From positions 1-55,779 of the forward strand of contig JAHFLF010000004.1 in assembly GCA_023255625.1 (NCBI GenBank): 55,779 nucleotides of DNA, read 5' to 3'. The translations under genes and the position numbers were made by a program. Positions 4,827 to 35,106 of this stretch are shown piece after piece (position 1 is the stretch's first letter; the number at the start of each line of letters is the position of its first letter). The DNA is from Candidatus Harrisonbacteria bacterium (GTDB taxonomy: Bacteria > Patescibacteriota > Minisyncoccia > UBA6257 > 1-14-0-10-44-23). The notes under the pieces are model-generated. The model was given only the letters and a program-made list of their open reading frames with translations, made no database searches and had not been told where the DNA came from.

Positions 4827-5705
4827 TTACTTTCTCAAACCAATTTTCCAAATTCCTTTTTCCAAAAATGCCTCGACGGTCTGCCGATTCGCTTTGTTGA
4901 TTAAGTTTGAATGCGACAGTTTATGCTTTTTTCCGTACTCAGCGAGGGTAACGATTTCAGCCCCCTCCAAATACGCCAACCGTTTATGATAACTATTCGT
5001 AAGCGATTTACCCACTATCTCCTCCATTATTGCAGTCGTGCCCTTTGATTCAAATTCCTTGAATGCCTCATAGTACATTTTTCGATCAATAAATTTGATA
5101 TTAACCGGCACAAAACCTTCTCGTAAAAGAAGATAATTATTAATCACTCTTCCAATGCGACCATTCCCGTCTCCAAATGGATGAATATATTCAAAGGTAA
5201 GATGAAGCCGGGCGATACGCTTAATGATATTTTCGTGGCTTGCCGAGTTGTATCCCGCCAACATTTTTTCCAATCGCTCAATAACCTCTTCGGGGCGGGA
5301 GCCGATATGATTGGCAACGCGAACATACTCCTTCTCGATGCGAAATCTTCCCGCAATATCATCGCGAATATTAGACATTAACATCTTATGTAAAGACAAA
5401 ATCATCTCTAAGGTAAGCTCTTGCTGTTTAGCTTTTGAATCTATATACGAAACGACGCGTGCCAAATTTTTTGCCTCAAAAATTTCCCTTTGGCCAACAA
5501 ACCGATCCAAGTCAATTTGAAGCAGAATTTTTTCGGTTTCCTCAAGACTCAAAGTGCTATCTTCAATGGCATTTGAGTTATATACTTGCTCTGCAACTTC
5601 AGTTTCAGCAATCAACTTAATAAGCGCCTCCTTACCGGTGACGGATTTATAGTATCGCTCACGAAGTGAATTCACCTTTTTGAAGACATTCAGTGTTTTC
5701 GCCAT
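4827..5705 (-). CDS. Fic-family protein (AMPylase-type) with an N-terminal inhibitory-motif-like SNAIED
   Basis: Fic motif HPFGDGNGRIGR. The ORF-track start at 5729 lies inside the promoter, so the ATG at 5705 (MAKTLNVFKK) is preferred because it sits 7 nt after a consensus -10. Confidence 0.88.
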   Translation of the reverse strand: MAKTLNVFKKVNSLRERYYKSVTGKEALIKLIAETEVAEQVYNSNAIEDSTLSLEETEKILLQIDLDRFVGQREIFEAKNLARVVSYIDSKAKQQELTLEMILSLHKMLMSNIRDDIAGRFRIEKEYVRVANHIGSRPEEVIERLEKMLAGYNSASHENIIKRIARLHLTFEYIHPFGDGNGRIGRVINNYLLLREGFVPVNIKFIDRKMYYEAFKEFESKGTTAIMEEIVGKSLTNSYHKRLAYLEGAEIVTLAEYGKKHKLSHSNLINKANRQTVEAFLEKGIWKIGLRK

Positions 5706-5712
5706 ATATTGA

Positions 5713-5752
5713 ATTATACTCCTATTCACGATTTTGTCAAGATAATCGTGAA
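5713..5752 (-). promoter_or_regulatory. Consensus promoter of the Fic gene, bracketed by an inverted repeat (candidate operator); leaderless geometry
   Basis: The minus strand reads TTGACA (5740..5735)-16 nt-TATAAT (5718..5713), then 7 nt, then ATG 5705. Inverted repeat TTCACGATT (5725-5733) / AATCGTGAA (5744-5752) flanks the -35. A third partial copy cgatttttcacg is at 5769-5780. Confidence 0.65.
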
Positions 5753-5818
5753 AATATGCAATAAAAAACGATTTTTCACGGTTATGAGCTCATTAGCAAG
5801 AGATGTAAACATCCTCAA

Positions 5819-6070
5819 TTACGGAATGAAACCTCCTGAAGCGGCGCTGGGCGTACTGCCCCCGCTAATGAGATAGAGCTGTTCCACCTTCTCCCGCGCC
5901 CACGGCGTTTTGCGCAAAAATGTCAGGCTCGACTTGATACTCGGGTCTTTCAAAAAGCAATTAATCTTAATCCGCGCGCCAAGCTTCTCCCACCCATACT
6001 TCTCAACTAAAAACTCCAATATCACCTGCAGCGTCTTCCCATGCAACGGATCATTTGATTTCGTCTCCAT
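5819..6070 (-). CDS. VF530/DUF2132-family small DNA-binding-like protein
   Basis: 83 aa, [61 protein letters not shown] matches my memory of the DUF2132 pattern. Confidence 0.7.
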
Positions 6071-6100
6071 CCCCTCAGTCTAGCACTCCTAATGGTGGCT

Positions 6101-6141
6101 GCTTGCCCGTCCGTAGTCCGCATTAGAAGGACGAAGGAGGG
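6101..6141. repeat. Short GC-rich hairpin repeat (cttgccc.tccgtag ... cgaaggaggg), related to 48306-48339
   Basis: gcttgcccgtccgtagtccgcattagaaggacgaaggaggg compared with the reverse complement of ccaccctccttcgctaaagctacggagggcaagc. Confidence 0.45.
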
Positions 6142-6162
6142 AACCCGTTATTCCGTAACAAG

Positions 6163-6495
6163 TCATTTAATAAATGACTTATAATAAATTTTGTAAGCTA
6201 CGATAACTGTGCCTAGGCCGATTGCAATGAATACAACCCATCGCGCTAAGTTATCTTGTGGCGGGAATAGGCTAACAGCAATCTGAGAAAAAGTCATAAA
6301 AAACATCGCAAATGAAAGAGATGTCGCAACCTGATTGAATCTGTCGGTGCTCTTATTGGACTTTTCAATCGTATCTTTAAGTCGCCGCATCATTTCAACC
6401 TGCGCCTGCTGGGCTGGAAGGCCGCTAGGCGTACCGATCACACCCCTACCAGCATCGTCGACTAATTCATTATCTGATTTAATATTTTCATTCAT
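6163..6495 (-). CDS. Small two-TM membrane protein downstream of the ATPase-DUF4435 gene
   Basis: 110 aa. Soluble N-terminal half, then SLSFAMFFMTFSQIAVSLF and WVVFIAIGLGTVIVAYKIYY. Same strand as the upstream gene and 48 nt after its stop. Confidence 0.5.
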   Translation of the reverse strand: MNENIKSDNELVDDAGRGVIGTPSGLPAQQAQVEMMRRLKDTIEKSNKSTDRFNQVATSLSFAMFFMTFSQIAVSLFPPQDNLARWVVFIAIGLGTVIVAYKIYYKSFIK

Positions 6496-6543
6496 ATCAA
6501 TAGTCGCTGAATCAGTATCCTCTCAATCCCTGAGGACGATTCA

Positions 6544-8007
6544 TCAAGTAATAAGAAATTTAAACTCCGAAAAATATTTTCCTAACAAATCATCTTGAGG
6601 AATTTTTTCCAAAATTTCGACCATTAAATCATATTTCTTTTTCCTATCTCCCTTTTTATCTTCAACTAATCTGACAAAAACTTCGGATCCATCAATGTAG
6701 TCAATAAGCTCAGCCACGGTGGCACTTTTCCCAAGAGCAACTTGGATGGGCTTGATTGCTGGCTTAGTCTTAACTTCAATTAAATTTATAAGTGCTTTAA
6801 TCTTCGCTTCCCAATCAGTCACTTCATACAAATTTAAAATTTCTGGATTAAGCAAATAATTTTCAATACAATACTTCTCTAATTGTATTAAATTTTTATA
6901 CTCAACCTTCTCGATATCTGTCAGGGGTTTATTGTCTCCATCTATCAAGAAATAAACATTCTGAACTGGTATATTTTTAAAAACTTTTGAAAAACTTTTC
7001 ACAAACTCTGAACCCCCATTAACAATTTGTACGCTTATATCTAGCTTTAATATTTTTGCAATCTCCTCTAATACTGTCTTATGAGATTCATCTTCAACAT
7101 AGACAAGCTTGCCCTTCGTAGTAATCCCTTGAATAATTTTTATCGTATCCCCAGCCAAATCGCTTATCATAGCCGGAGTAAAATTTTTATCAACTAAAAC
7201 CTTCTCATTGTCCCAGAACAAAAATTTAGTCCTCGGCCTAAATTTATCTAAAGCAATAACACGAGAGTGAGTAACAGTTATTATCTGCTTCTCATATTGA
7301 GTGGAGAAAAAATCAAGAAAATCAAAAAGTTTTTCCTCGAGAGACCAATTGAGATGAACTTCAGGTTCATCGATAAGGTAGATATCCGTAAAATCTCTAG
7401 AAAAATAAATTGCGAATACAAGGGAAATTATAGCATTTTCGCCTTCACTTAATTTATTTAAAGATAAACTTTTTTTATTTTTTACTATTTGTGATTGATA
7501 TTTTGAATTCTCAGCATCCCAGCTAAAAATTAGTTGATAGTTAAAAATCCTTTTAAGAACTTTATCGTATTCTTCCTGAACAGCCTTAGCAGCGTCTGCT
7601 TTTAAGTGAGTACTCTTATTAACAAGGAGCTCTGCACTTTCTACAAGGTATTCGGCAATAGACTTTATTATTTGTACATTTTGATCTTCAATTTGTTGAT
7701 TTAAAATTTGATTAATTTCTTGAGCCTGCTTACTTTTATCGTATCCAAACTGTGTCTTAAGATTTTCAACTAAAACTTTCTGAGCATTACGTTTCGGACT
7801 AAAAACAATGACATCCTTTTTCCCAGCAGGATCGCTAAAAAAAACTTTTCCGCTATCTCCTCTATGACAAGAAATCCAGTTCAGCAACTGACTCTTACCT
7901 GTCCCGTTAGTTCCAGAAATCAAATTTAATCCGACAATAAAGTCCATGTCTTGCTGGAATACGCCTTCCCATAAACTAATTTTAATTTGCTTGATATAAT
8001 TTTTCAT
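6544..8007 (-). CDS. ABC/AAA_21-type ATPase fused to a DUF4435/Toprim-like domain (OLD / PARIS AriA-AriB-like single polypeptide)
   Basis: Walker A GTNGTGKS, signature LSEGE, Walker B IYLIDEPEVHLN, H-loop TVTHS. The C-terminal part has LVYVEDESHK, GGSEFV, YFLIDGDNKP and KYCIENYLLNPE (Toprim/DUF4435-like acidic motifs and the IENYL motif). Visibly more AT-rich than its neighbours. Confidence 0.78.
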   Translation of the reverse strand: MKNYIKQIKISLWEGVFQQDMDFIVGLNLISGTNGTGKSQLLNWISCHRGDSGKVFFSDPAGKKDVIVFSPKRNAQKVLVENLKTQFGYDKSKQAQEINQILNQQIEDQNVQIIKSIAEYLVESAELLVNKSTHLKADAAKAVQEEYDKVLKRIFNYQLIFSWDAENSKYQSQIVKNKKSLSLNKLSEGENAIISLVFAIYFSRDFTDIYLIDEPEVHLNWSLEEKLFDFLDFFSTQYEKQIITVTHSRVIALDKFRPRTKFLFWDNEKVLVDKNFTPAMISDLAGDTIKIIQGITTKGKLVYVEDESHKTVLEEIAKILKLDISVQIVNGGSEFVKSFSKVFKNIPVQNVYFLIDGDNKPLTDIEKVEYKNLIQLEKYCIENYLLNPEILNLYEVTDWEAKIKALINLIEVKTKPAIKPIQVALGKSATVAELIDYIDGSEVFVRLVEDKKGDRKKKYDLMVEILEKIPQDDLLGKYFSEFKFLIT

Positions 8008-8125
8008 AAAAATACCCCACTCCCCCGGCTTGGAAGGTTACGGGTGTAAAGTCCTAAGTCATCGGGCTCGTGTGCGCCCACCAACTATTAATTTATCTCA
8101 ATTATACCAATTTTTAAGCCAAAAA

Positions 8126-8359
8126 TCAATTGAGAGCCTTAATAATAGCTTTAAAAATTTCTTCTGGGGCGTCTTTAAGTTGATGTTCCCAAATTTGTAT
8201 GACCTGCCAACCCTTATCACGAAGATTGCGAGTAGTCTTTAAGTCTCGCCGCCTATTTGCTTCTATCTTGGCGCGCCAAAAATCATTTTTAAGCAGATGT
8301 TTCCATCGTGGATATTGCCAGCCGTGCCAAAAATCGCTATCCAAAAAATATCGAGCTTC
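8126..8359 (-). pseudogene. vsr: Remnant of a Vsr very-short-patch-repair endonuclease (C-terminal half only)
   Basis: DSDFWHGWQYPRWKHLLKNDFWRAKIEANRRRDLKTTRNLRDKGWQVIQIWEHQL matches the Vsr C-terminal half (FWHG ... FW..KI..N..RD ... GW.V...WE). An in-frame TAA at 8362..8360 removes the N-terminal half, and there is no ATG start. Confidence 0.7.
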
Positions 8360-8431
8360 TTACTAATTATCTGAATTAAATCAAATTTTGAATCAAAAAT
8401 CACTGTGGATAACTTTCGGTTTAGTTTCGGC

Positions 8432-8437
8432 TATAAT
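8432..8437 (+). promoter_or_regulatory. -10 box (TATAAT) 7 nt upstream of the LexA-MTase ATG; leaderless geometry
   Basis: TATAAT at 8432-8437, ATG at 8445, no SD. Direct repeat TTTCGG-tttag-TTTCGG (8414-8430) abuts the -10. No good -35 was found. Confidence 0.4.
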
Positions 8438-8444
8438 AAAGTAT

Positions 8445-9878
8445 ATGGAAATGACTCCGCGAAAACAACAACTTCTAGATTTCGTAAATACCTATCGCTT
8501 GCGCCGTGGTTTTGCGCCATCAATTCCGGAAATTGCCAAAAAACTCAAACGCGCGCCATCTACAATTCACCAGCACTTGGAAGAGTTGCAAGCCGGCGGG
8601 CACATTAATAGAGAAAAAAATCAGCCCCGTAGTGTTGCTGTTGTGGAGCGGCAGCAAATGGTCAGCGTTCCCCTGCTGGGCACTATCGCAGCTGGTGCAC
8701 CTCTGACTTTATTCGATATTCCTAAAGAAACCATTGCTGTTCCAAAAAATAAAATACCAGCAGCATCAACAATCTATGCTCTCCGTGTATCTGGAAACAG
8801 CATGATTGACGAAAATATTAACGACGGAGATATCGTTCTAGTTAAACAGCAAGAAACCGCCGAGAACGGACAGAAGGTGGTCGCGTTAATCGACAATCAA
8901 GAGGCCACACTGAAAAAATTCTATAAAGAGAATGGCCGCATACGACTTCAACCGGCGAACAAAACCATGGAGCCATTAATCTTCAGGAACGGTCGGGATG
9001 TTTCGATACAAGGCATCGTGCTTGATGTTATCCGTGAAGAAATAAGACCGACCGTACAAATTTATGCGCATCAAGAGACTAAAAAATATAAAGAATTGCC
9101 GCTAAATAAGATTCTTTGCGGTGATGCAGTTGAAATTTTGAAAAAAATCCCATCAAACTCCATAGACTTAGTTGTCACTTCTCCACCCTACGATGATATC
9201 AGAATGTATAACGGTTTTTCCATAAACCTACCAGCGGTAGGAAGGGAACTGAATCGTATTTTAAAAAATGGCGGAATTGCCGCGATGGTAATTCAAGATG
9301 CAACTCGTAATTTCGGGAAAACATTAACATCTTTTAAGACAATCATAGATTGGTGCGACAATGCGGGCTTTAAACTCTTTGAAACTGCAATCTATAGAAA
9401 ACACGGCACGGAAGGGGCCTGGTGGACAAAACGATTCCGTGTTGATCATGAATATATGCCAATTTTTCTGAAAGGCGACCGTCCTGGCTACTTTAATAAA
9501 GAACCGCTGAAAATACCTTCTAAGCATGGGGGTAAAACAATGACTGGCAGCGGCAATCGACGAACAGATGGGACGACAACAAAAACAGTTAGGAGAGAAA
9601 TAAATAGCATGAAGTGCAGGGGCACAGTCTGGGATTATCTGAATGCTGGGGACAAAAACCCGCTCAAAAGAAAACACCCGGCAACCTTCCCGGATAAAAT
9701 TCCAACTGACTTTATACAATGCTTCTGTCCGCCGGGAGGGGTTGTGCTTGACCCATTTATCGGATGCGGATCAACCGCTGTTACAGCGAAAAAATTAGGA
9801 AGGAATTATATCGGCATTGATATATCCCAAGAATACTGTGATCTTGCTAAAGAGCGCCTTAGCACAGACGCTAGCTAA
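8445..9878 (+). CDS. LexA (wHTH + S24 autopeptidase) fused to a beta-class N4/N6 DNA methyltransferase
   Basis: N-terminal part: LexA wHTH IPEIAKKLKRAPSTIHQHLEELQAGGHI, cleavage site GTIAAGAPL, Ser in RVSGNSM, Lys in EATLKKF. C-terminal part: motif IV DLVVTSPPYDD, then motif I LDPFIGCGSTAVTAKKLGRNYIGIDI. The frame is continuous. The ORF-track start at 8388 is TTG, so ATG 8445 is preferred. Confidence 0.85.
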   Translation: MEMTPRKQQLLDFVNTYRLRRGFAPSIPEIAKKLKRAPSTIHQHLEELQAGGHINREKNQPRSVAVVERQQMVSVPLLGTIAAGAPLTLFDIPKETIAVPKNKIPAASTIYALRVSGNSMIDENINDGDIVLVKQQETAENGQKVVALIDNQEATLKKFYKENGRIRLQPANKTMEPLIFRNGRDVSIQGIVLDVIREEIRPTVQIYAHQETKKYKELPLNKILCGDAVEILKKIPSNSIDLVVTSPPYDDIRMYNGFSINLPAVGRELNRILKNGGIAAMVIQDATRNFGKTLTSFKTIIDWCDNAGFKLFETAIYRKHGTEGAWWTKRFRVDHEYMPIFLKGDRPGYFNKEPLKIPSKHGGKTMTGSGNRRTDGTTTKTVRREINSMKCRGTVWDYLNAGDKNPLKRKHPATFPDKIPTDFIQCFCPPGGVVLDPFIGCGSTAVTAKKLGRNYIGIDISQEYCDLAKERLSTDAS

Positions 9879-10893
9879 GTTCGTCGGGATGTTCGATAGT
9901 GAATTCTATATTCTGACTACCCGTCATAGCAAACGAAAGTGGATTTTTTGCTATAAAAGCATCAAAGGACCTATTACTTAGCGAAGTACCGGTAAAATCG
10001 CCCTTTGTAAACTGCGAAAGTTGCCATTTGTTCCAAGACCAGTTTGCGATATTGTAGCTCCATCCGGTTAACTTTGATAAAAGTGCTAAGAATCTTTCAG
10101 CCCGTTTCTTTGCATCCTGATTAAGCAGATAAAAATTTTCTTCTTCAAGCACAAGGTTGTGGGGTGTTCCTTCACCGCCCCGTAGAGTAATAGTCACCCT
10201 ATCTCCTCGCTCACGCGGGATACTGATAGCGTCTCGCGCTCTAAGAAAATCATTCATCGCAAGCATAAGCTCATGAACCGAATAGTGTTTATTCAAAAAT
10301 ATTTTATTTAGAGCAGTACCCTTCTCCTCTGCACGCAAATATTTTAACCAACTTAAAGAATTTTCAGTATATTGAACCATAGTCATCCAAGTCCCATCGG
10401 CAAAAAGAATTGGCGCGATAGCTCTCTTCGATATTTCTATATTCTGAATGCTGCCAATAAGTCCGACAAGAAAATGAATTGTAGCGAAAGGATATTTTAG
10501 TCGAAAATCATGATATCCGTCATGGCCACGAAGATTATTAATCGATATACAATTATCAAAATTATTCCAGTTAGGAGGTAAGCGGCGATGGTTGTACATA
10601 ACCATATGCTGCCCCACGCTTTTAATCTCCTTGCGAAAAATTTCCATATCCAAAAATACACAATCTCTTGCCTTGAATCCTTTCTGAAGAACTAAAATTT
10701 TCCCATCATAAAAACCTCTCACTTTCCAATTGAGATGATGTGACATAAACAAACCACAAAGCAAGCCATCACTATCTGGGCTTAAAATACAATCCTGATC
10801 GCGCTCAACAATCCAAGGATATTTCTTGATGACCGCAGCATAATCAATAACATCATTACGACCCTCTAACATCTCCTGAATTTTTGAAGACAT
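9871..10893 (-). CDS. Hypothetical protein, candidate cognate nuclease of the LexA-MTase module
   Basis: 340 aa. Convergent with the MTase gene, with 3' ends overlapping by 8 nt. Acidic/Lys patches SPDSDGLLCG and FLDMEIFRKEIK could form a nuclease-type site. No family recognised. Confidence 0.55.
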   Translation of the reverse strand: MSSKIQEMLEGRNDVIDYAAVIKKYPWIVERDQDCILSPDSDGLLCGLFMSHHLNWKVRGFYDGKILVLQKGFKARDCVFLDMEIFRKEIKSVGQHMVMYNHRRLPPNWNNFDNCISINNLRGHDGYHDFRLKYPFATIHFLVGLIGSIQNIEISKRAIAPILFADGTWMTMVQYTENSLSWLKYLRAEEKGTALNKIFLNKHYSVHELMLAMNDFLRARDAISIPRERGDRVTITLRGGEGTPHNLVLEEENFYLLNQDAKKRAERFLALLSKLTGWSYNIANWSWNKWQLSQFTKGDFTGTSLSNRSFDAFIAKNPLSFAMTGSQNIEFTIEHPDELS

Positions 10894-11016
10894 GAAACTC
10901 TAAATAGAAAAATTAAATTGTACCTATCATCGCACTTCTAGGGGCTTTTTTCAACTAAATACAGCAAACTGCTCAACGATGCCGCCATTGAGTCGTTACC
11001 TTTGGTAGAGAAATTA

Positions 11017-11259
11017 TTAAAAATCTGTCTTGGAACTTCCTGCTTTAAATACTTTCCCGGTTTGTAAATCTTTATACTGACCCTTGCGATAAACGAACCG
11101 ATACTTAGCAGTGTCGCTTTTTATCCATTTTTGTTCGCTTTTTGTAGCATACTCTTTTTTATCGACATAGGCATGTCCACGCATAATAGTCTCGCCCTTT
11201 TGGTGATCAAAAAATATTTCGGCCAGTCTTTTATTAACAACCGCAAAGCTCCAACTCAT
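11017..11259 (-). CDS. Small hypothetical protein
   Basis: 80-aa ORF, Lys-rich, no recognisable motif. Supported only by ORF length and strand context. Confidence 0.35.
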   Translation of the reverse strand: MSWSFAVVNKRLAEIFFDHQKGETIMRGHAYVDKKEYATKSEQKWIKSDTAKYRFVYRKGQYKDLQTGKVFKAGSSKTDF

Positions 11260-27804: not shown

Positions 27805-30800
27805 CTATCGGCCGGTGTTTAGCGCCGCCCGAGTCCCCGGGCCAACATAGCCAACTGCTTCCAGGCCAACGCTCTCTTGATACTTCATGAGCGCCTGCTT
27901 GGTCGCGTTACCGAAGTACCCTTTCGCAGTTCCAGCCGGTATCTTCAAGAATCCTTTGGCTTCTAGGATGTTCTGAAGAGCGATGACATCGGCGTTTTCT
28001 GCCCCCGTCTTGATCATCACCGTAAAGGTGTATGAGCCGGATACAGTTGCCGCAGGTGCAGGAGCGCTAACAGAGGTACTGCCACCAGCTTCAGTACTCA
28101 ACGCTGCCCGAGTCCCCGGACCAGCATAGCCAACGGCTTCCAGGCCGACGCTAGTCTGGTATTGCATCAGCGCTTTCATAGTCGCATTACCGAAGTATCC
28201 TTTGGCAATTCCAGCCGGCATCTTCAGGAATCCTTTGGCTTCGAGAATGTTCTGAAGGGCTACGACATCGTTACCTTCGGAGCCGGTCTTGAGCATGCGC
28301 GTAAAGATACCGGCACTAACCGCTCCAACCTGCTGTCTAGCTTGTAACTGCAACTGCAGAGTTGCAAGCTGCTGGGCCAGCGAAACTGCTGAAGGAGTAT
28401 TTGCAGTTACTGATGGGCTAGTCGGTATAGTAACAGCCGTACCATAACTTCCTCCACCGCCACCACCGCCACTAGTGCTACCACCGCCACCGATAGAGGC
28501 CGCGGTTAAGGTTACGGAAACTGCCGAACTGGCCGCAGATTCATTGCCGCCGGCATTTAACGCCGAAACCTTAAAGTAGTAGGTGCTGCCGTTAGTTAAT
28601 CCGGTTACATCATAACCATTCTGGTTGCCAACCGTCGGCTCCGAACCAACCCGGGCATAGGTGCCGCCCTGGCTGGAACTTTGATACACATCATAACTAT
28701 TTGCACCCGAGACAGAATCCCAGGCCAACCGAACAGTTGTGGCATTAAGTGCCGTCGCGGTGATGCTAGCCGGAGTCTCTGGCGCAGTTGGATCACTTGG
28801 AATTAACGGGGCAAAATCCGAGAAGTGGGAGACCGTTGCCGTCAGCACATCATTAACTGTGTCCACGGTTGTCGGCAAAGTCGTCCAGGAATTAGCCGAC
28901 TCGTTCCAATAACCAAGCTGGATGCTGCTCTCCGAAACTCCAGTCGGCAGATCCGCGGCTGTATATGGCACGGTAATTGTCACATCGCTGTTCAAGCTGG
29001 AGACCTCCTGACCAGATGAGTTGGTAACATTCACGGTTACAGCATTCTTGGTTAGCACACTACCAGTCGTCGGCTTCGGCACATTGGTCGTTGGCTTAGT
29101 CGCAATTGTGGACGGATTAGTATCCGAGCCGGCAGAAGCCGGAGGCATAGTTAACTTGAATCCACTACCAATGTCGTTGTTGGTAAACTGTCCGCCGGAG
29201 GCCGGGGTAAAGGTCTGCTGCTGAAGCGGCTTTGGCGTGTAACCGCTGATTGCAGTAAGCGCCACTGCAATTCCGCTCGGGCTGTTGCTGTTCACTGTAA
29301 CTGGTACGCCGTCAGAATTGTATCCGTCTGCGTGGCCACGAACCGTCCAAGTGCCATTATCAACTGCCAGCGAATAAGCACCGGTTGAGTCAGTTTGGCT
29401 GACCGCAAATCCACCAGCTCCGTCAGTAGCGTCAACGAAGGCCTGGCTCACGCCGGATCCGCCGATGGTAACCGTTCCCGTAATCGTCCGAGAGGCGGTT
29501 GTGAGCACAACATTCTGCGCGGTCAAATTTGCACCAGCTACCGTTACTGAACTTTCTGCCGGTGATTTCAGCCCTTGTTTATCAGCACGCAGATCATAAC
29601 TACCGTCTGGAACCGTGAGAGTATAAGTTCCATTCGAAGCGGTCTGGGTACCAATGTGAATCTTGTTGGTCTGGCCAGCCGGCGTACCGGTCAGCGAGAC
29701 CCAAGCACCCTCCACATTGCTGGCGTTGGCGGTAACTGTTCCGGCAACTGTCCGCTGCGTACCGGCGGTAGCTGTGAAACTTAATGTGGTGCTCGTATTG
29801 ACATTCGATTGCGCTCCAATCGGACCAAAGGCCGGGTGAGCCGCGCGAATCGTGTAAGTACCTGGCGACAACTGAAGAGTGTAGACGGCAAGAGTACCCG
29901 AAGCCACACTGACATTCGTTCCATTACCTCGCCCATTTGTATCGCGAGCATCAACAAAGGCATTAGTGATACCAGTTGTGCCGTCTGTGAGTCCAACCAC
30001 AACCGTGAGCGAGGCGCCCGGAGCACAGTTCTTGCCGGAGGTTGTGGTGTTCGCAGAAACAGTGACGCTACCGGTTACAACCGAATCACCTACACCAGGG
30101 ATAAAGCAGCTGACGGTGTAGGAGCCCGGCGGAACCTTGATGCTGTATGCGCCGCTGGCATCAGTCGTCGCCATGTTGCCGCCGTTATCTCCTTCGGCTC
30201 GAACATTCGCACCCTGCTGGGCAACGCCGCCCTTAGTAACAGAGCCGGTGATTGTGCCAAAGGTAACTGTCGCCGCGCTAAAGTCCTGACCGGTTACCGC
30301 GGTTGTACCAACGGTAATTGTCTTTGTGCCAAGTTTTCCAAACCCAGGCGCAAAGGCAGAAACTCTCCAGGTTCCGGCACTAACATACAATGTATAGCTT
30401 CCAGCACTATCAGTCGGCCCGCCGACAAAGTTTTGCGCACCGCCACCGAGTGAGGTCGTGTCGCTAGTAGAGGTAATCTTTTCCGCAGAAACACCGGCGT
30501 AGGAAATTGCGTTACCACCGTCATCTTTAACTGTTCCACTAATCGTAAGCCCAGAGGTACTGATGGCCATGACAAAGCTCAAGCTAGCCGGAACATTTGT
30601 TCCAGAGGTCGGCACGCTGATAGCCAGGTCTGGTACAAACGGCATACCCGGCTTGTTCGCGTTCACCAGATAATTACCGGCGACCACATTCAATGTAAAG
30701 CTGCCGTCAGTCTGCGTTTGCGCGCTGGTACCAAAACCAACGCTGCTACCGCCGCCGCCAGTTGTAGATCCTTCAGTTGGCCGGGCAAAAACTTGTACGC

Positions 30801-33800
30801 CGCTAATACCAGTACCGGCGCTGTCGCGAACATACCCGGTGATGGTCTTACCGGCCGCCGTTAAAGTAAAGTTCTTACCGGTAATGTTTGCTCCAAGAAC
30901 CTGGACGGTGATATTTGGCGGAGGCATAAAGGTAAATGTCGGCGCAGGCGGAGCGGCCTGACCAGGAGTCATTGGCGGCATAGCCGGGCCAACGCCCACC
31001 TGATAAGTCGTGCTGGCATTTACCGGCAGACTATAAGCGAAAGTGCCGCCGCCATTGGTCGTTCCCGTCTTCTTAGTAAACCCGCTCGGGCTGGAAGCGA
31101 AGACATCAACTTTCGTGTTAGCCGGACCAGTAATCGTGCCGGCGATCGTGAATGCGGCCGCCGTTAAACCAAGGTTTTTAGTGGTTGTACCGCTACTGAT
31201 TGAGATTGGCTGGGGCGCACTGTTAAAAACATAGTCGCCGGCCGCAGCCACGCTGTCTGGTGCAATGCCAAGCATGTAATCTCCGACGGCCAGACCAGAG
31301 AAGGTAGTCGTACCATTGGCACCGCTGGTTGCCTCAATACCGCCAGATGCCGGGCTACCTAAGAAGGCGCGGATGTTGGCCACGCCGGCTTCTGTTCCGC
31401 TCTTGATATTGTCTCCAGCCGTAGCGCCGCCAGCACCGTTATCTACAAAGACATTGAGTACTACGACAGCAGAGCCAGACTGACCAAGATAGAACGGATT
31501 CGAGGTCATATTTTCTTTCGTCACGCTGCTCGTGTCCTGGGTCAAAATCGTAACCGTGTAACCGTTGCTGGACGGCGCGGTAGAGTTCACGATTCCTTTC
31601 AGGGTAAAGCGCAGGAAGTCATTCGCCGTTGAGGCAGCACCGGCTGTCGTAACAGTAATCGTTCGCGCCGAGGCGTTTACCGCAACTGAACCAATCGTAA
31701 TCGTGCCGGTATTTGGGCCGTTCAGGTCACCGTTTGCAAAGCTCTCGGTACCAACCGTTGCGGCAACCGCGTTTGTAACATCAAAGCCGACCGGAAAAGT
31801 TACAAGAATCTTACCGCCAAGCGGCACAACCTGCGATACCGGAAATTCAAACTCGTAGTTGGAGGTGGCGCCGGCAGATCGGTTAGTCGGCGTAGCACGA
31901 ATCGGCATTGTACCGGCCTGATTCGGATTCTGCTGCGAAGTGCCGCAGTTTAAGCAGCCGCCGGTCGTGTTGGAGTTCGCCACCGTGAACTGCGTGGTGT
32001 TTGCCGCCGGAGTACCCGTAGTGAGTATTGCGTTACCGGCTAAATCCTGCAAAGCAGTGCTGGCAGTAATCTTAATTGTCGCGCCGGTTGTCAGCGACAA
32101 ACCGCTGATGCGGGCCGCCATCATCATGCCGTCATAAGTAACGGTTTTGCCGGAGAGCGAGATCGAAGTTCCAACCGGACTCTCGACTGTGTAATTCGAG
32201 ATATTATCTGCGGCATTTGCACCACCGCCGGACTGCATCGGCTCGGAGAAGGTTATGGCCGCGCCAAAGTTATCGGCGTTACCAAAGGTTACCGACGGGC
32301 CGGTGCTGTCGGTGGCACTGTCGGTGGTAAAGGTCGAAGTAAAATTCTGGTTACCGCCGGTACCCGAATCAGCATCCAGCGCATTGCCAATAATGTCTGT
32401 AACACCGGAGGTAATAGTGAAGGTATAGGTTGTGTTGCTGGCAAGCTGGCTAGTCGGACTGGCGCAGATTGTCCGGCTGTTCGGACTGTAGCTCACATTG
32501 ACCGCAATGCTGCCAGAAAGCGTAACGGTGGAAGCGGTTACAGTGGAAGCGTCGATGTCTTTCGACATACCAGAACAAACAATCGTATTGCGCTTGACCG
32601 CGGTCGCTCCGGCACTTGGGAAGACGCCATTTGCAGTCGGATGAGACGAATCGGCAGATCCGGCCGGAGTTTTAAAGTTCAGGAAGTAGGTATTGTTCAG
32701 AGCGGTGCCAGTATAACTCAAAGTGGTTGTACCGACTTTCAGAATGTAACCGGTTGAGGCGGTTAAATTTGAAGATGGAGTAACCGTTAGCGTAGTCGAA
32801 GCAGCATCGAGCGATCGCGTTGCAGTTATTGGCGTACCTGGAGCACCAAAGTTATCAGTATAAAGAGTAACATTGGAGCTGCTCAAAGCCGAACTGCCCA
32901 TCGCCTGTGAGAATGTGAGTTTTATCGGCGCGTTTATCGGATGCGATTGCGATCCGGAATTTGGCGCGGTTGATTGAACAAATGGCGGCGCAATGTTCGT
33001 ACCGCCGGTGGCACCGGTAGTAAAGCTAACTGTCGAGGTGGTGCCCAAAGCGTTACCGGCCTTGTCGCTAACCGCCGGACCAACCGTAACTACATAAGCC
33101 GTATTTGTCGTGAGCGGACTCACCGAATTATCAAAGCGCAGGTTGGCGCTGCTAATCGTGCCCGGACCGGAAACCAGGTGGAACGAATAGGTATTTAGCG
33201 GACTAGCATTTGCCGTGGCTTTCGCAAAGACGATATCGCCATTTGCCAGCGCAAGAACATTGTCAGTGACTGCCGCTTGCACTGTAGTTGCTAGCCGGAC
33301 CATCACCGAGCCGCCAGCCACGCGCGAGGTCGTCGTAGAGTTTCCGTCTAAAACTGCTGTGCTTGTCGCATCAGCCGAGAGATCACCCGCGGTAGTCGCC
33401 AGATGCCAGCTATAGGTCGTTGTGCCGACATTGGCAAAGACTAAGTCTCCTTGGCTGACCGCCAGAACGCTAGTCGAAGAAGCTGTCGAAGCCGCCAAAC
33501 TGTAGCGGGCGGCGGTCGGATAAGTCGGCGCGCCGGAGCCGCCATCAAAACGCAAAGTACTGCTGGAGATAGCTCCGGCGGTAGTTACAACATGCCAGTT
33601 GGTACGGGTTGTGTCGCCGGAATTTGTCGCCGTTTTGACTACAACTAGATCACCGACTTTGAAAGCGGGGTCAATCGCTGTTACTAAACCGGTCTGCGTT
33701 GCGGCCGCAACTTTAATCAGCTGCTGTCCGCCAAAAAGAGTTGTGCCGTTGACCGAAAAGGTTCCAGAAGTCTGCGTCGCATTAGTAACAATACCAAGCT

Positions 33801-34797
33801 CGGCCGGGAATGACTCGTGCTGGAAATAAATAATATCGCCAAGAGCGGGCCCAAAATAACTTCCATTAAAGAAGATTGGATTGGTGGCGCTAGAAAACAT
33901 GAAACTACTGACGCCAGCGGTCGGGAATTTGGCGAAGCGGGAGCTGGCGGCATAGGTCGGGGCAGAAGAAGGCACGATGTTGACATTGTTGAAGTTCGGA
34001 TTAACGGCGATCGAAACCGGCGAGCCGGCCGCAGTCATAGTGATATTGCTCGGCGTAAGCGTCGAAGGATCCATCTGTTCGGAGAAGCCGACACCGATGA
34101 AAGCACTAATCGGAACATTCGTGGAGTTATTCTGCGGTCCGGTCATACTGAAGTCCACTGTCGGCGCGGCAGTATCAACCGTAATCATACTGCTAGTTGC
34201 CGCCAAAATAGTCGGAGAGCTGGTGCTGGTAATAATGCCATCTGCCGGAATTGTTGCTTTGAAAGTTGTACTGTTGGTCAAACCGGAACTATCGGGTTTA
34301 ACTACAACATAAAAAATCTGACCGGTAGCCAGGGTCGTTGTGCTGCCCGGGGTTAGAGTGAAAACATTGGATGCAGCATAGACCGGACTGGCGGCCAAAG
34401 TTATCTGCGTATCGGCTGCGGCCGAAAAACCGGTGCCGGCGGTCTCTCGCCAAAGTTGCACGCCGCCATTTGTCGTTGCCAGGTCGGCCAATTCAGAAGA
34501 GCTAGCGGCAGTATTGTTCCAGGTCGGTGAACCGCTTTGGCCGGTAAACCGAACTTTGACTCCGGTCAGCGCCTGCGTATCTTCGTCGCTACCAATCGTA
34601 ACTTTCAAAACTGCGGCAGAGCTACCACCCTGCTTAAAGAAGACACCGCCAAAGGTCGGATCTGAAACTACCGAGACCGCTGCTCCAGCAAAATGAACGG
34701 CGACCAAACTACTAATAAAAAGAGCGGACACTAAAATTAAAAGTGCCGCCCTGACTACCGAGTAACGAGAAACACCAAACGCATTTTGCGTGTCCAT
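27805..34797 (-). CDS. Giant (2330 aa) cell-surface protein: SbsA/Big_5 Ig-like repeats, carboxypeptidase-regulatory-like repeats, FN3, and two C-terminal peptidoglycan-binding domains
   Basis: N-terminal signal anchor. Big_5-type segments (DTAAPTVDFSMTGPQNNSTNVPISAFIGVGFSEQMDPSTL). At least five CarboxypepD_reg-like units (ITGYVRDSAGTGISGVQVFARP and others). FN3 (VRLAWDSVSGANSYDVYQS ... YYFKVSALN). Tandem PG_binding_1 (NDVVALQNILEAKGFLKMPAGIAKGYFGNATMKALMQYQ, two copies). Confidence 0.9.
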   Translation of the reverse strand: MDTQNAFGVSRYSVVRAALLILVSALFISSLVAVHFAGAAVSVVSDPTFGGVFFKQGGSSAAVLKVTIGSDEDTQALTGVKVRFTGQSGSPTWNNTAASSSELADLATTNGGVQLWRETAGTGFSAAADTQITLAASPVYAASNVFTLTPGSTTTLATGQIFYVVVKPDSSGLTNSTTFKATIPADGIITSTSSPTILAATSSMITVDTAAPTVDFSMTGPQNNSTNVPISAFIGVGFSEQMDPSTLTPSNITMTAAGSPVSIAVNPNFNNVNIVPSSAPTYAASSRFAKFPTAGVSSFMFSSATNPIFFNGSYFGPALGDIIYFQHESFPAELGIVTNATQTSGTFSVNGTTLFGGQQLIKVAAATQTGLVTAIDPAFKVGDLVVVKTATNSGDTTRTNWHVVTTAGAISSSTLRFDGGSGAPTYPTAARYSLAASTASSTSVLAVSQGDLVFANVGTTTYSWHLATTAGDLSADATSTAVLDGNSTTTSRVAGGSVMVRLATTVQAAVTDNVLALANGDIVFAKATANASPLNTYSFHLVSGPGTISSANLRFDNSVSPLTTNTAYVVTVGPAVSDKAGNALGTTSTVSFTTGATGGTNIAPPFVQSTAPNSGSQSHPINAPIKLTFSQAMGSSALSSSNVTLYTDNFGAPGTPITATRSLDAASTTLTVTPSSNLTASTGYILKVGTTTLSYTGTALNNTYFLNFKTPAGSADSSHPTANGVFPSAGATAVKRNTIVCSGMSKDIDASTVTASTVTLSGSIAVNVSYSPNSRTICASPTSQLASNTTYTFTITSGVTDIIGNALDADSGTGGNQNFTSTFTTDSATDSTGPSVTFGNADNFGAAITFSEPMQSGGGANAADNISNYTVESPVGTSISLSGKTVTYDGMMMAARISGLSLTTGATIKITASTALQDLAGNAILTTGTPAANTTQFTVANSNTTGGCLNCGTSQQNPNQAGTMPIRATPTNRSAGATSNYEFEFPVSQVVPLGGKILVTFPVGFDVTNAVAATVGTESFANGDLNGPNTGTITIGSVAVNASARTITVTTAGAASTANDFLRFTLKGIVNSTAPSSNGYTVTILTQDTSSVTKENMTSNPFYLGQSGSAVVVLNVFVDNGAGGATAGDNIKSGTEAGVANIRAFLGSPASGGIEATSGANGTTTFSGLAVGDYMLGIAPDSVAAAGDYVFNSAPQPISISSGTTTKNLGLTAAAFTIAGTITGPANTKVDVFASSPSGFTKKTGTTNGGGTFAYSLPVNASTTYQVGVGPAMPPMTPGQAAPPAPTFTFMPPPNITVQVLGANITGKNFTLTAAGKTITGYVRDSAGTGISGVQVFARPTEGSTTGGGGSSVGFGTSAQTQTDGSFTLNVVAGNYLVNANKPGMPFVPDLAISVPTSGTNVPASLSFVMAISTSGLTISGTVKDDGGNAISYAGVSAEKITSTSDTTSLGGGAQNFVGGPTDSAGSYTLYVSAGTWRVSAFAPGFGKLGTKTITVGTTAVTGQDFSAATVTFGTITGSVTKGGVAQQGANVRAEGDNGGNMATTDASGAYSIKVPPGSYTVSCFIPGVGDSVVTGSVTVSANTTTSGKNCAPGASLTVVVGLTDGTTGITNAFVDARDTNGRGNGTNVSVASGTLAVYTLQLSPGTYTIRAAHPAFGPIGAQSNVNTSTTLSFTATAGTQRTVAGTVTANASNVEGAWVSLTGTPAGQTNKIHIGTQTASNGTYTLTVPDGSYDLRADKQGLKSPAESSVTVAGANLTAQNVVLTTASRTITGTVTIGGSGVSQAFVDATDGAGGFAVSQTDSTGAYSLAVDNGTWTVRGHADGYNSDGVPVTVNSNSPSGIAVALTAISGYTPKPLQQQTFTPASGGQFTNNDIGSGFKLTMPPASAGSDTNPSTIATKPTTNVPKPTTGSVLTKNAVTVNVTNSSGQEVSSLNSDVTITVPYTAADLPTGVSESSIQLGYWNESANSWTTLPTTVDTVNDVLTATVSHFSDFAPLIPSDPTAPETPASITATALNATTVRLAWDSVSGANSYDVYQSSSQGGTYARVGSEPTVGNQNGYDVTGLTNGSTYYFKVSALNAGGNESAASSAVSVTLTAASIGGGGSTSGGGGGGGSYGTAVTIPTSPSVTANTPSAVSLAQQLATLQLQLQARQQVGAVSAGIFTRMLKTGSEGNDVVALQNILEAKGFLKMPAGIAKGYFGNATMKALMQYQTSVGLEAVGYAGPGTRAALSTEAGGSTSVSAPAPAATVSGSYTFTVMIKTGAENADVIALQNILEAKGFLKIPAGTAKGYFGNATKQALMKYQESVGLEAVGYVGPGTRAALNTGR

Positions 34798-34930
34798 GGA
34801 AAATTAAATAATTAAATAATATTAATAAATTCGTAGCGAAAAATATTTCAATCAGGAGCACGATGCTCCTTGTAATTAGTATAGCTCCGTTTTCATGGCC
34901 GCTTGACAAGCGATGTGGATAACTTTCGAG

Positions 34931-34995
34931 AAACACCGCTCCGCTGTTTTGCGAGGAACGGGGTTCTATCCTCGCAAAACAGCGGAGCGGTGTTT
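34931..34995. repeat. Family-1 hairpin D: perfect 26-bp stem around the conserved core cgagg-aacggggttctat-cctcg
   Basis: Arms 34931-34956 / 34970-34995 are exact reverse complements. The core is the reverse complement of the core in hairpins E and F. Confidence 0.85.
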
Positions 34996-35010
34996 ATTTT
35001 TGGAGGGATT

Positions 35011-35081
35011 AGAAAAACCGGGGCCAGCTCTGCACGAGGATAGAACCCCGTTCCTCGTGCAGAGCTGGCCCCGGTTTTTCT
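35011..35081. repeat. Family-1 hairpin E: perfect 29-bp stem around the conserved core cgagg-atagaaccccgtt-cctcg
   Basis: Arms 35011-35039 / 35053-35081 are exact complements. The arm sequence is unrelated to D and F, and A/T runs at both ends resemble a bidirectional terminator. Confidence 0.85.
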
Positions 35082-35106
35082 GCTGAAATATATTTTGAAA
35101 AAATTC

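Follow-up and report, generated by a model that had tools for sequence, protein, structure and literature searches.

We found that a contig of Candidatus Harrisonbacteria bacterium (GenBank assembly GCA_023255625.1, contig JAHFLF010000004.1), analysed over its 55,779 nucleotides and referred to here as the window, carries a gene, lexA-M (8445..9878, + strand; delimited by open reading frame (ORF) listing and by Pfam and NCBIfam profiles), in which a full and, judging from its sequence, apparently cleavage-competent LexA is joined to a full DNA methyltransferase. Together with a convergent partner gene encoding 340 amino acids (aa), R340 (9871..10893, - strand), a putative restriction endonuclease gene that overlaps the 3' end of lexA-M by 8 nucleotides (nt), it probably forms a two-gene type II restriction-modification (R-M) cassette at 8404-10893 within a low-GC defence island, the stretch at 5-12 kb having 35-42% GC and the rest of the window 44-56%. 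LexA-M probably acts as a damage-sensing safeguard against self-restriction, in which autorepression of the methylase would be lifted by RecA-stimulated self-cleavage. Methylases with helix-turn-helix (HTH) heads, LexA itself and R-M systems under controller (C) proteins are known; a whole self-cleaving LexA on a methylase is a new variant of R-M regulation.

A single unbroken frame extends from 8388 to 9878 (+), and translation from the ATG at 8445 gives a product of 477 aa followed by a stop codon. The N-terminal part contains the DNA-binding domain of LexA, a winged helix (wHTH; recognition helix STIHQH) spanning residues 2-62 (8448..8630, +), which matched PF01726 (LexA_DNA_bind) at 42.8 bits against a cut-off of 23.7, and the S24 self-cleaving and dimerisation domain (residues 76-192, 8670..9020, +), which matched PF00717 (Peptidase_S24) at 101 bits; the NCBIfam lexA equivalog TIGR00498 scored 174 bits (cut-off 111). 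The C-terminal part is a beta-class N4/N6 DNA methyltransferase domain (residues 240-470, 9162..9854, +) with a full-length match to PF01555 (N6_N4_Mtase; 127.5 bits) and matches to the PADLOC MTase_II/oMTase models at E 1e-43. Motif IV (SPPY, residues 246-249, 9180-9191, +) precedes motif I (FIGCGST, residues 438-444, 9756-9776, +), the order typical of the beta class. In the AlphaFold2 model the protein consists of two folded halves with a disordered stretch between them (residues 199-214, where the predicted local distance difference test score, pLDDT, falls below 50), so that a flexible linker of about residues 197-219 (9033..9101, +) separates the S24 domain from the methylase. Thus, unlike a stand-alone LexA of about 200 aa, the protein has 477 aa and carries a methylase domain. 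A preliminary description made from the sequence alone had claimed a full LexA and a full beta-class methylase, motif IV ahead of motif I, in one ORF, and had named the three Pfam profiles as a check; all three matched above their cut-offs, and the frame is kept in independent assemblies. The nearest solved structures to the methylase were 2zie, the N4-cytosine methyltransferases 8s9m and 8s9n, CcrM and M.PvuII, with 8s9m and 8s9n aligning over the C-terminal part only. Since SPPY is typical of N4-cytosine enzymes, the methylase may have N4-cytosine specificity.

The fusion is widespread. A search over 5.8 billion proteins gave 4458 matches, and the best 120 of these, on which the architecture was read, were all 472-501 aa long, with 97-100% query coverage and 63-79% identity, and all three Pfam domains recurred in them. 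Full-length homologues thus number at least 120; they are from metagenome-assembled genomes (MAGs) of Patescibacteria (the candidate phyla radiation, CPR), under the source names 'transcriptional repressor LexA' or 'site-specific DNA-methyltransferase'. A relative is encoded at 313 places in a collection with one genome per GTDB species, mostly in Patescibacteria. An assembly or frameshift artefact was ruled out, since ENA, JGI, NCBI and Logan assemblies, which are independent, contribute at least 120 clusters with the in-frame fusion. An exact look-up of the window's own protein on contigs gave no record. Eighty loci were fetched, each of which was searched by tblastn with the query cut in pieces. 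A viral origin was rejected: no fusion was present in viral collections, in which the best 80 IMG/VR matches and all GenBank phage matches cover the methylase domain only. One Acinetobacter phage, MD-2021a (H10/H11, CAKLQF020000006.1, 95260-96485), has a cI-type S24 repressor gene beside an rsrIM-type methylase gene; the two are unfused, in an arrangement reminiscent of the CPR fusion.

The residues expected for self-cleavage, which the preliminary description had pointed out, are all present, namely the predicted cleavage site Ala83-Gly84 (codons 8691-8696, +) and the catalytic dyad of Ser119 (8799-8801, +) and Lys157 (8913-8915, +). They are invariant in an alignment of 34 orthologues and also in 42 cluster representatives of divergent fusions that share just 27-47% overall identity. 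Over its whole length, the LexA part can be aligned with LexA of Thermotoga (3k2z, E 4.5e-33) and of E. coli, and the wHTH aligns also with 7b5g. In E. coli LexA, the pocket for RecA F203 is formed by V79, V82, F111, L113, V146 and V153 (bioRxiv 10.1101/2023.10.30.564768); the equivalents in the fusion, L78, I81, Y111, L113, V146 and A154, make a hydrophobic pocket and are each at least 90% conserved. In addition, the S24 domain is conserved far beyond the wHTH (median identity to the window 70-78% versus 41-42%). RecA-stimulated cleavage of the fusion is therefore predicted. Alternatively, S24 might serve as a dimerisation module only, without cleavage, and the protein would then be a methylase of the ordinary autoregulated sort, unconnected with DNA damage. 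In favour of this, two loci (L047 and L052) in which the wHTH lies directly on the methylase, without S24, keep R340 as well as the operator and the DnaA box described below. Such (near-)invariance of the Ala-Gly, Ser, Lys and RecA-pocket residues at 27-47% overall identity is, however, unexpected for a domain kept just to dimerise, and we consider a purely dimerising role improbable.

The promoter region of lexA-M points to regulation by its own head. A -10 box, TATAAT, was confirmed by reading the sequence at 8432..8437 (+), 7 nt before the ATG, where the preliminary description had placed it, and is overlapped or abutted by a direct repeat, TTTCGG-N5-TTTCGG (8414..8430, +), identified by sequence comparison as having an 11-bp period and the form TTTC-N7-TTTC. 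This is the sole exact copy in the 55.8-kb window, with about 0.007 expected from its 12 fixed bases. Direct repeats with the same period overlap or abut the -10 box in nearly all fusion loci, the commonest form being ACTTTCGATTTATTTTCTATAAT. A -10-like hexamer ends 4-9 nt ahead of the start codon in 36 of 63 fusion loci, implying a leaderless or near-leaderless mRNA; because of this common geometry, 8445 is favoured as a leaderless start over the codon for Met3 (8451), at the equivalent of which the homologues begin. Fusion genes with longer leaders (about 40-60 nt; L001, L009, L013, L023, L028, L029, L032, L035, L038 and L074) have the sequence GTCAA 5-12 nt before the ATG, at the expected Shine-Dalgarno position.

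Both repeat units vary together across the loci and track the recognition helix. For example, helices of the form S(V)STAH[F/H/Y]H accompany the half-site TTTC[T/G]AT; ST[I/V]HQH, which includes STIHQH of the window, accompanies TTTCGG(T); STVHEH and SSINER accompany TTTCGGG; KSTIHQH and SGVYEH accompany GTTCGG; and STTHEH and STAHEH (L005 and L027) accompany GCTCGGG, which was read by eye, having been missed by the automatic finder. This co-variation argues strongly for the repeat as the site of the fused wHTH, so that the operator, which the preliminary description had offered as a possibility, is now predicted with some assurance. Its format, [G/T]TTC-N7-[G/T]TTC, equals that of the direct-repeat LexA box GTTC-N7-GTTC known from Alphaproteobacteria (PMC8565304). 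Exactly one such site is present per locus, at the lexA-M promoter, and none was found ahead of the nuclease gene, or of a C gene joined to it, in about 45 loci, suggesting that the methylase is autoregulated by the head, with no direct effect of the head on the nuclease gene. In front of the R340 ATG lies a TTTC...TTTC string, which was rejected as an operator, as its spacing is wrong.

R340, of which the preliminary description had noted the convergent position and the 8-nt overlap, both confirmed here, accompanies the methylase closely. A homologue adjoins the methylase in 60 of the 63 loci in which the latter is at least 60% identical to that of the window, and in the other three the contig ends at the methylase stop codon; it is thus present in 60 of 60 loci with enough sequence and in none of the 17 loci with another methylase. 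The pairing spans Patescibacteria, Firmicutes, Planctomycetes and Bacteroidota, and two gene orders occur, convergent and co-directional. Where LexA is absent, the methylase gene is followed co-directionally by R340 in Eubacteriales/Clostridia, and the two genes converge in Pirellulales and Bacteroidota, suggesting a mobile methylase/nuclease unit to which lineage-specific regulators have been added. On the strength of this co-occurrence R340 is the cognate partner of the methylase, its nuclease function being putative. In about 30 Patescibacteria loci a gene for a 73-aa HTH_3 protein ends 1-5 nt before R340, which is a classical controller-nuclease operon. In the window, no HTH_3 gene is present upstream of R340, the 80-aa ORF at 11017-11259 being unrelated; the upstream region (10894..11016, -) contains neither a C-protein gene nor a LexA operator, and a weak promoter-like site lies at 10954-10926.

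The same head is carried by other methylases as well, as was seen when 1.84 billion cluster representatives were searched exhaustively by HMMER with the LexA part. Most of its closest relatives are long (378-841 aa) and have LexA as their N-terminal part, and both LexA domains were found there in all 42 long relatives scanned; a few relatives of 213-233 aa may be truncated fusions. Counting C-terminal families over these 42, one protein being able to match more than one family, gave N6_N4_Mtase in 30, Eco57I in six, D12/Dam in five, N6_Mtase in four, MmeI_Mtase in three, C5 DNA_methylase in two and TaqI_C in one; in all, the matches were to DNA methylase families of five kinds. Among the proteins P0241-P0389, N-terminal LexA is carried on gamma-class (Eco57I/N6_Mtase/TaqI_C, up to 841 aa), D12, C5 and permuted N6_N4 methylases, and a few of these fusions are from Omnitrophota and Auribacterota, not Patescibacteria. 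In 17 of the fetched loci, termed group D (L050, L051, L054, L056, L057, L059-L061, L063-L066, L068, L070, L071, L073 and L079), the LexA S24 domain is 73-81% identical and the wHTH is often the same, with a methylase only 35-40% identical. In the three group D loci examined by Pfam (L050, L065 and L079), the convergent partner is a type II nuclease of 190-194 aa of the His-Me-finger, Hpy99I-like kind, that of L065 matching PADLOC REase_II at E 5.5e-47, and an HTH_3 C-protein gene ahead of it was confirmed in L050 and L065, the two scanned. In addition, in L044-L046 a 205-aa S24 repressor is encoded by a gene of its own, immediately upstream of an orthologous methylase that stands alone, with R340 kept; these loci and the wHTH-only L047 and L052 are evolutionary intermediates. 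The fusion to a whole S24 LexA, which the preliminary description had presented as without a known parallel, is therefore real, but not unique; it is one member of a large family that has no name and includes many kinds of methylase and, on the evidence of these domain architectures, is a general design recurring with several methylase classes. The occurrence of the same LexA head on beta, gamma, Dam-like and C5 methylases argues for strong selection for the coupling.

The most serious rival to the safeguard is that the fusion is a general SOS repressor, that is, a housekeeping LexA with a methylase tail for which the direct repeat would be the SOS box of the phylum at recA and repair genes, the R-M link being secondary, for example by making the cassette hard to lose. 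That the TIGR00498 lexA equivalog cut-off is exceeded fits such a role, as does the occurrence of one wHTH type and operator (TTTCGATTTATTTTCTAT) across many candidate phyla and on two methylases. Clear stand-alone LexAs of about 200 aa were found only at 47% identity or less to the LexA part, and the two that could be traced derive from non-CPR bacteria, which also fits. About 600 kb of Patescibacteria DNA flanking the loci, however, contains no extra operator. A genome-wide scan with the common operator 18-mer listed at least 120 places, mostly apparent chance matches in AT-rich non-CPR genomes; 22 of the places with the exact 18-mer had a LexA gene by tblastn and one more, L170, proved on reading to be lexA. 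No SOS gene was seen among the places inspected, three others with a CPR label being a pilin-like gene, a coding region and a site by a likely tRNA; the remaining places, mostly in non-CPR genomes, lay outside this inspection. Furthermore, two MAGs hold two such cassettes each, KR13_N2.mb.46 with two fusions to different methylases (L018 and L086) and SRP257756_co1_86 with a fusion of group D (L068) and a cassette in which repressor and methylase are unfused (L046). The rapid joint evolution of wHTH and operator fits a small regulon, the gene is part of a low-GC defence island, and a relative is present in only 313 species genomes of the collection. A general SOS role therefore seems unlikely, although less so than the other alternatives considered here.

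For the safeguard that we favour, the following circuit may be proposed. The S24 domain would dimerise LexA-M, and the dimer would bind the operator and keep its own synthesis low, in a negative autoregulation like that of HTH-headed methylases. When single-stranded DNA and RecA filaments accumulate, one likely trigger being cutting of under-methylated chromosomal sites by the partner nuclease, S24 would cut at Ala83-Gly84; the wHTH head would be severed, the promoter would open and a burst of methylase would restore protection. As the signal fades, intact LexA-M would re-repress. The net result would be a damage-sensing homeostat that limits self-restriction and that would also allow immediate methylase expression on entry into a naive cell, with the nuclease presumably expressed independently in the window and under a C protein in many relatives. 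Since unbalanced type II R-M activity induces SOS (PMC3874152), the simplest purpose of the circuit would be a feedback loop in which self-restriction raises the methylase.

The same parts could in principle be wired in the opposite sense, as a suicide switch in which cleavage removes or destabilises the methylase and phage-inflicted damage turns the nuclease on the host chromosome, in a form of abortive infection. The neighbours include defences of abortive type (an AriAB/PARIS-like ATPase and a Fic protein), and the nuclease gene, having no LexA operator, would stay expressed. In E. coli, proteases degrade the products of LexA cleavage, and the S24-methylase fragment might share this fate. 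However, a cut at Ala83-Gly84 does not touch the methylase domain, which follows a flexible linker, and cleavage should also derepress the gene, so that methylase should rise; a suicide switch is in our view quite doubtful.

A DnaA-box-like 9-mer, TGTGGATAA (8404..8412, +; reverse complement TTATCCACA), abuts the operator and matches perfectly the DnaA-box consensus TT(A/T)TNCACA (PMC6015884). Of 66 fusion loci, 42 have an exact 9-mer (TGTGGATAA, usually TGTGGATAAC) in the 130 nt upstream, a number that rises to 55 when a single variant base is tolerated; both orientations occur and the distance varies. The remaining 478 kb of the same loci contain nine copies. The box is found also ahead of the wHTH-only variants (L047 and L052) and of the unfused repressor genes (L044-L046), and is absent ahead of stand-alone methylases of other phyla. 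DnaA may therefore bind at 8404-8412, and joint control by DnaA and LexA has a precedent at E. coli uvrB. The window has only two exact copies of TGTGGATAA. The second is embedded in a 15-mer that recurs from the fusion promoter (TGTGGATAACTTTCG, 34914-34928), lies just past a TTGACA and is followed by two long near-perfect hairpins at about 34931-35007 and 35012-35082, the loops of which are mutually complementary. This region (34905-35085), upstream of an ORF of 2330 aa (27805-34797, -), had no Rfam match, and no RNA family was found by Rfam anywhere in the window.

Several observations weigh against the safeguard. The wHTH-only methylases of L047 and L052 imply that a cassette can work without the S24 part. 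The scan with the operator 18-mer, swamped as it was by chance matches, is unable to define the regulon. R340, one likely source of the damage, had no match in Pfam, NCBIfam, the REBASE-derived nuclease models of PADLOC or the PDB sequences, and a Foldseek search with its AlphaFold2 model (pLDDT 91.9, predicted TM-score 0.92) gave no significant match. The suggestion in the preliminary description that the ORF encodes a cognate nuclease therefore stands as regards the pairing, in view of its strict co-occurrence with the orthologous methylase, but gains nothing from any nuclease family or fold. The PD-(D/E)xK, HNH and GIY-YIG folds that had been proposed for comparison are unsupported, as no profile matched and no such fold was among the Foldseek matches.

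The top Foldseek places for R340 in PDB and BFVD were instead taken by RecJ, Cdc45/GAN and DHH phosphohydrolases, at E 0.02-0.5 and TM 0.2-0.3, values that are not significant. The invariant residues of R340 resemble DHH motifs I-IV, with S-P-D40-S-D42-G after strand 1, F-L-D82 at a strand end, G-x-H96 and D166-G, and no Pfam DHH match was obtained even at E 10. A DHH-like catalytic domain is thus a lead suggested by the model. All 962 homologues of R340 are unnamed and none has a Pfam domain. A broader reading would combine these elements into an undescribed invention widespread in CPR bacteria, in which R-M systems of many types are wired to RecA, and probably to DnaA, through a self-cleaving repressor borne by the methylase, with R340 as the first restriction endonuclease of DHH/RecJ fold; we advance it tentatively, as somewhat short of an even chance.

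The sequence recognised by the cassette was sought through k-mer avoidance, and this approach was rejected, no palindrome being consistently avoided across carriers. In the window, ACGT occurs five times (at 7789, 22070, 26720, 41866 and 42741) against about 92 expected (observed/expected ratio 0.05, z -12.8). In the genomes whose R340 and methylase are closest, the ratio is 0.76-1.0, so that the scarcity is not attributable to LexA-M/R340 and is probably due to another system, present or past. Adjoining the cassette, 4827-8007 (-) encodes a Fic protein (PADLOC PDC-S04/SoFic, E 1e-36) and a 487-aa ATPase with AAA_15 and DUF4435 domains that scored best against the AriAB (PARIS), PtuA and GajA models. 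A 72-aa ORF at 8126-8344 (-) matches the C-terminal half of Vsr only (TIGR00632 positions 64-118 of 119) and is a truncated vsr remnant; it is flanked by a 36-nt direct repeat (8093-8128 and 8367-8402, 81% identity), the second copy of which ends just before the DnaA box.

The cassette may be compared with several known systems. M.SsoII/M.Ecl18kI and M.EcoRII likewise have an N-terminal DNA-binding head on the methylase, which is exactly the architecture of L047 and L052, and M.SsoII and M.EcoRII bind the promoters of their own genes (PMC3874152). In the fusion, however, the head is a whole LexA that has as its operator a direct repeat placed over the -10 box, and repression may be breakable by proteolysis because the S24 self-cleavage domain is intact; moreover, whereas a head of the M.SsoII type can act on the nuclease promoter, no operator lies near the nuclease gene or controller-nuclease operon at any locus. 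With LexA the fusion shares the two domains, the cleavage site, the dyad, the residues of the RecA pocket and the presence of an operator in the promoter of its own gene; its C-terminal methylase part of 280 residues and its place in a mobile defence cassette set it apart, as does the lack of a demonstrated SOS regulon. PvuII, Esp1396I and AhdI are type II R-M systems controlled by C proteins, and many relatives of the fusion likewise have their 73-aa HTH_3 gene 1-5 nt upstream of the nuclease gene and convergent with the methylase gene, with a leaderless regulator transcript; the copy in the window differs in lacking a C gene and in having its methylase under a LexA head instead of a constitutive promoter.

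Both CapH/CapP of the cyclic-oligonucleotide-based anti-phage signalling system (CBASS) and type I restriction alleviation, which as outlined in PMC11109961 protects unmodified self DNA, similarly link the activity of immune genes to DNA damage. CapH and CapP, however, are a separate HTH protein and metalloprotease, and restriction alleviation degrades the nuclease via ClpXP, whereas in the fusion the sensor would sit in the methylase polypeptide. UmuDAb, HdiR and phage CI are RecA-cleavable S24 repressors of one or a few operons (PMC8565304). They resemble the unfused version in L044-L046 and the Acinetobacter phage cI beside rsrIM, but none is covalently fused to an enzyme domain, unlike LexA-M. 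In our literature search no description of a LexA-methylase fusion was found, and a 2026 preprint that deals with CPR methyltransferases makes no mention of LexA; the operator motif may appear in the 2017 study of the Patescibacteria SOS network by Sanchez-Osuna, Barbe and Erill, which lay outside that search.

To our knowledge, the safeguards known for type II R-M systems are transcriptional timing devices, that is, C proteins and HTH heads. If the proposed circuit is true, LexA-M would provide direct feedback from chromosome breakage to protection and would be a type II counterpart of restriction alleviation, and the conserved DnaA box hints at replication-coupled control as well. The public labels 'transcriptional repressor LexA' and 'adenine-specific methyltransferase' each overlook half of the protein. 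The matched helix/operator pairs offer material for studying change of LexA specificity, and the R340 family, with about 960 members, is a candidate for a new restriction enzyme fold. CPR bacteria are thought to depend largely on R-M systems, and according to published abstracts they rarely encode CRISPR-Cas; the fusions suggest that CPR cells may tie self-protective methylation to DNA damage.

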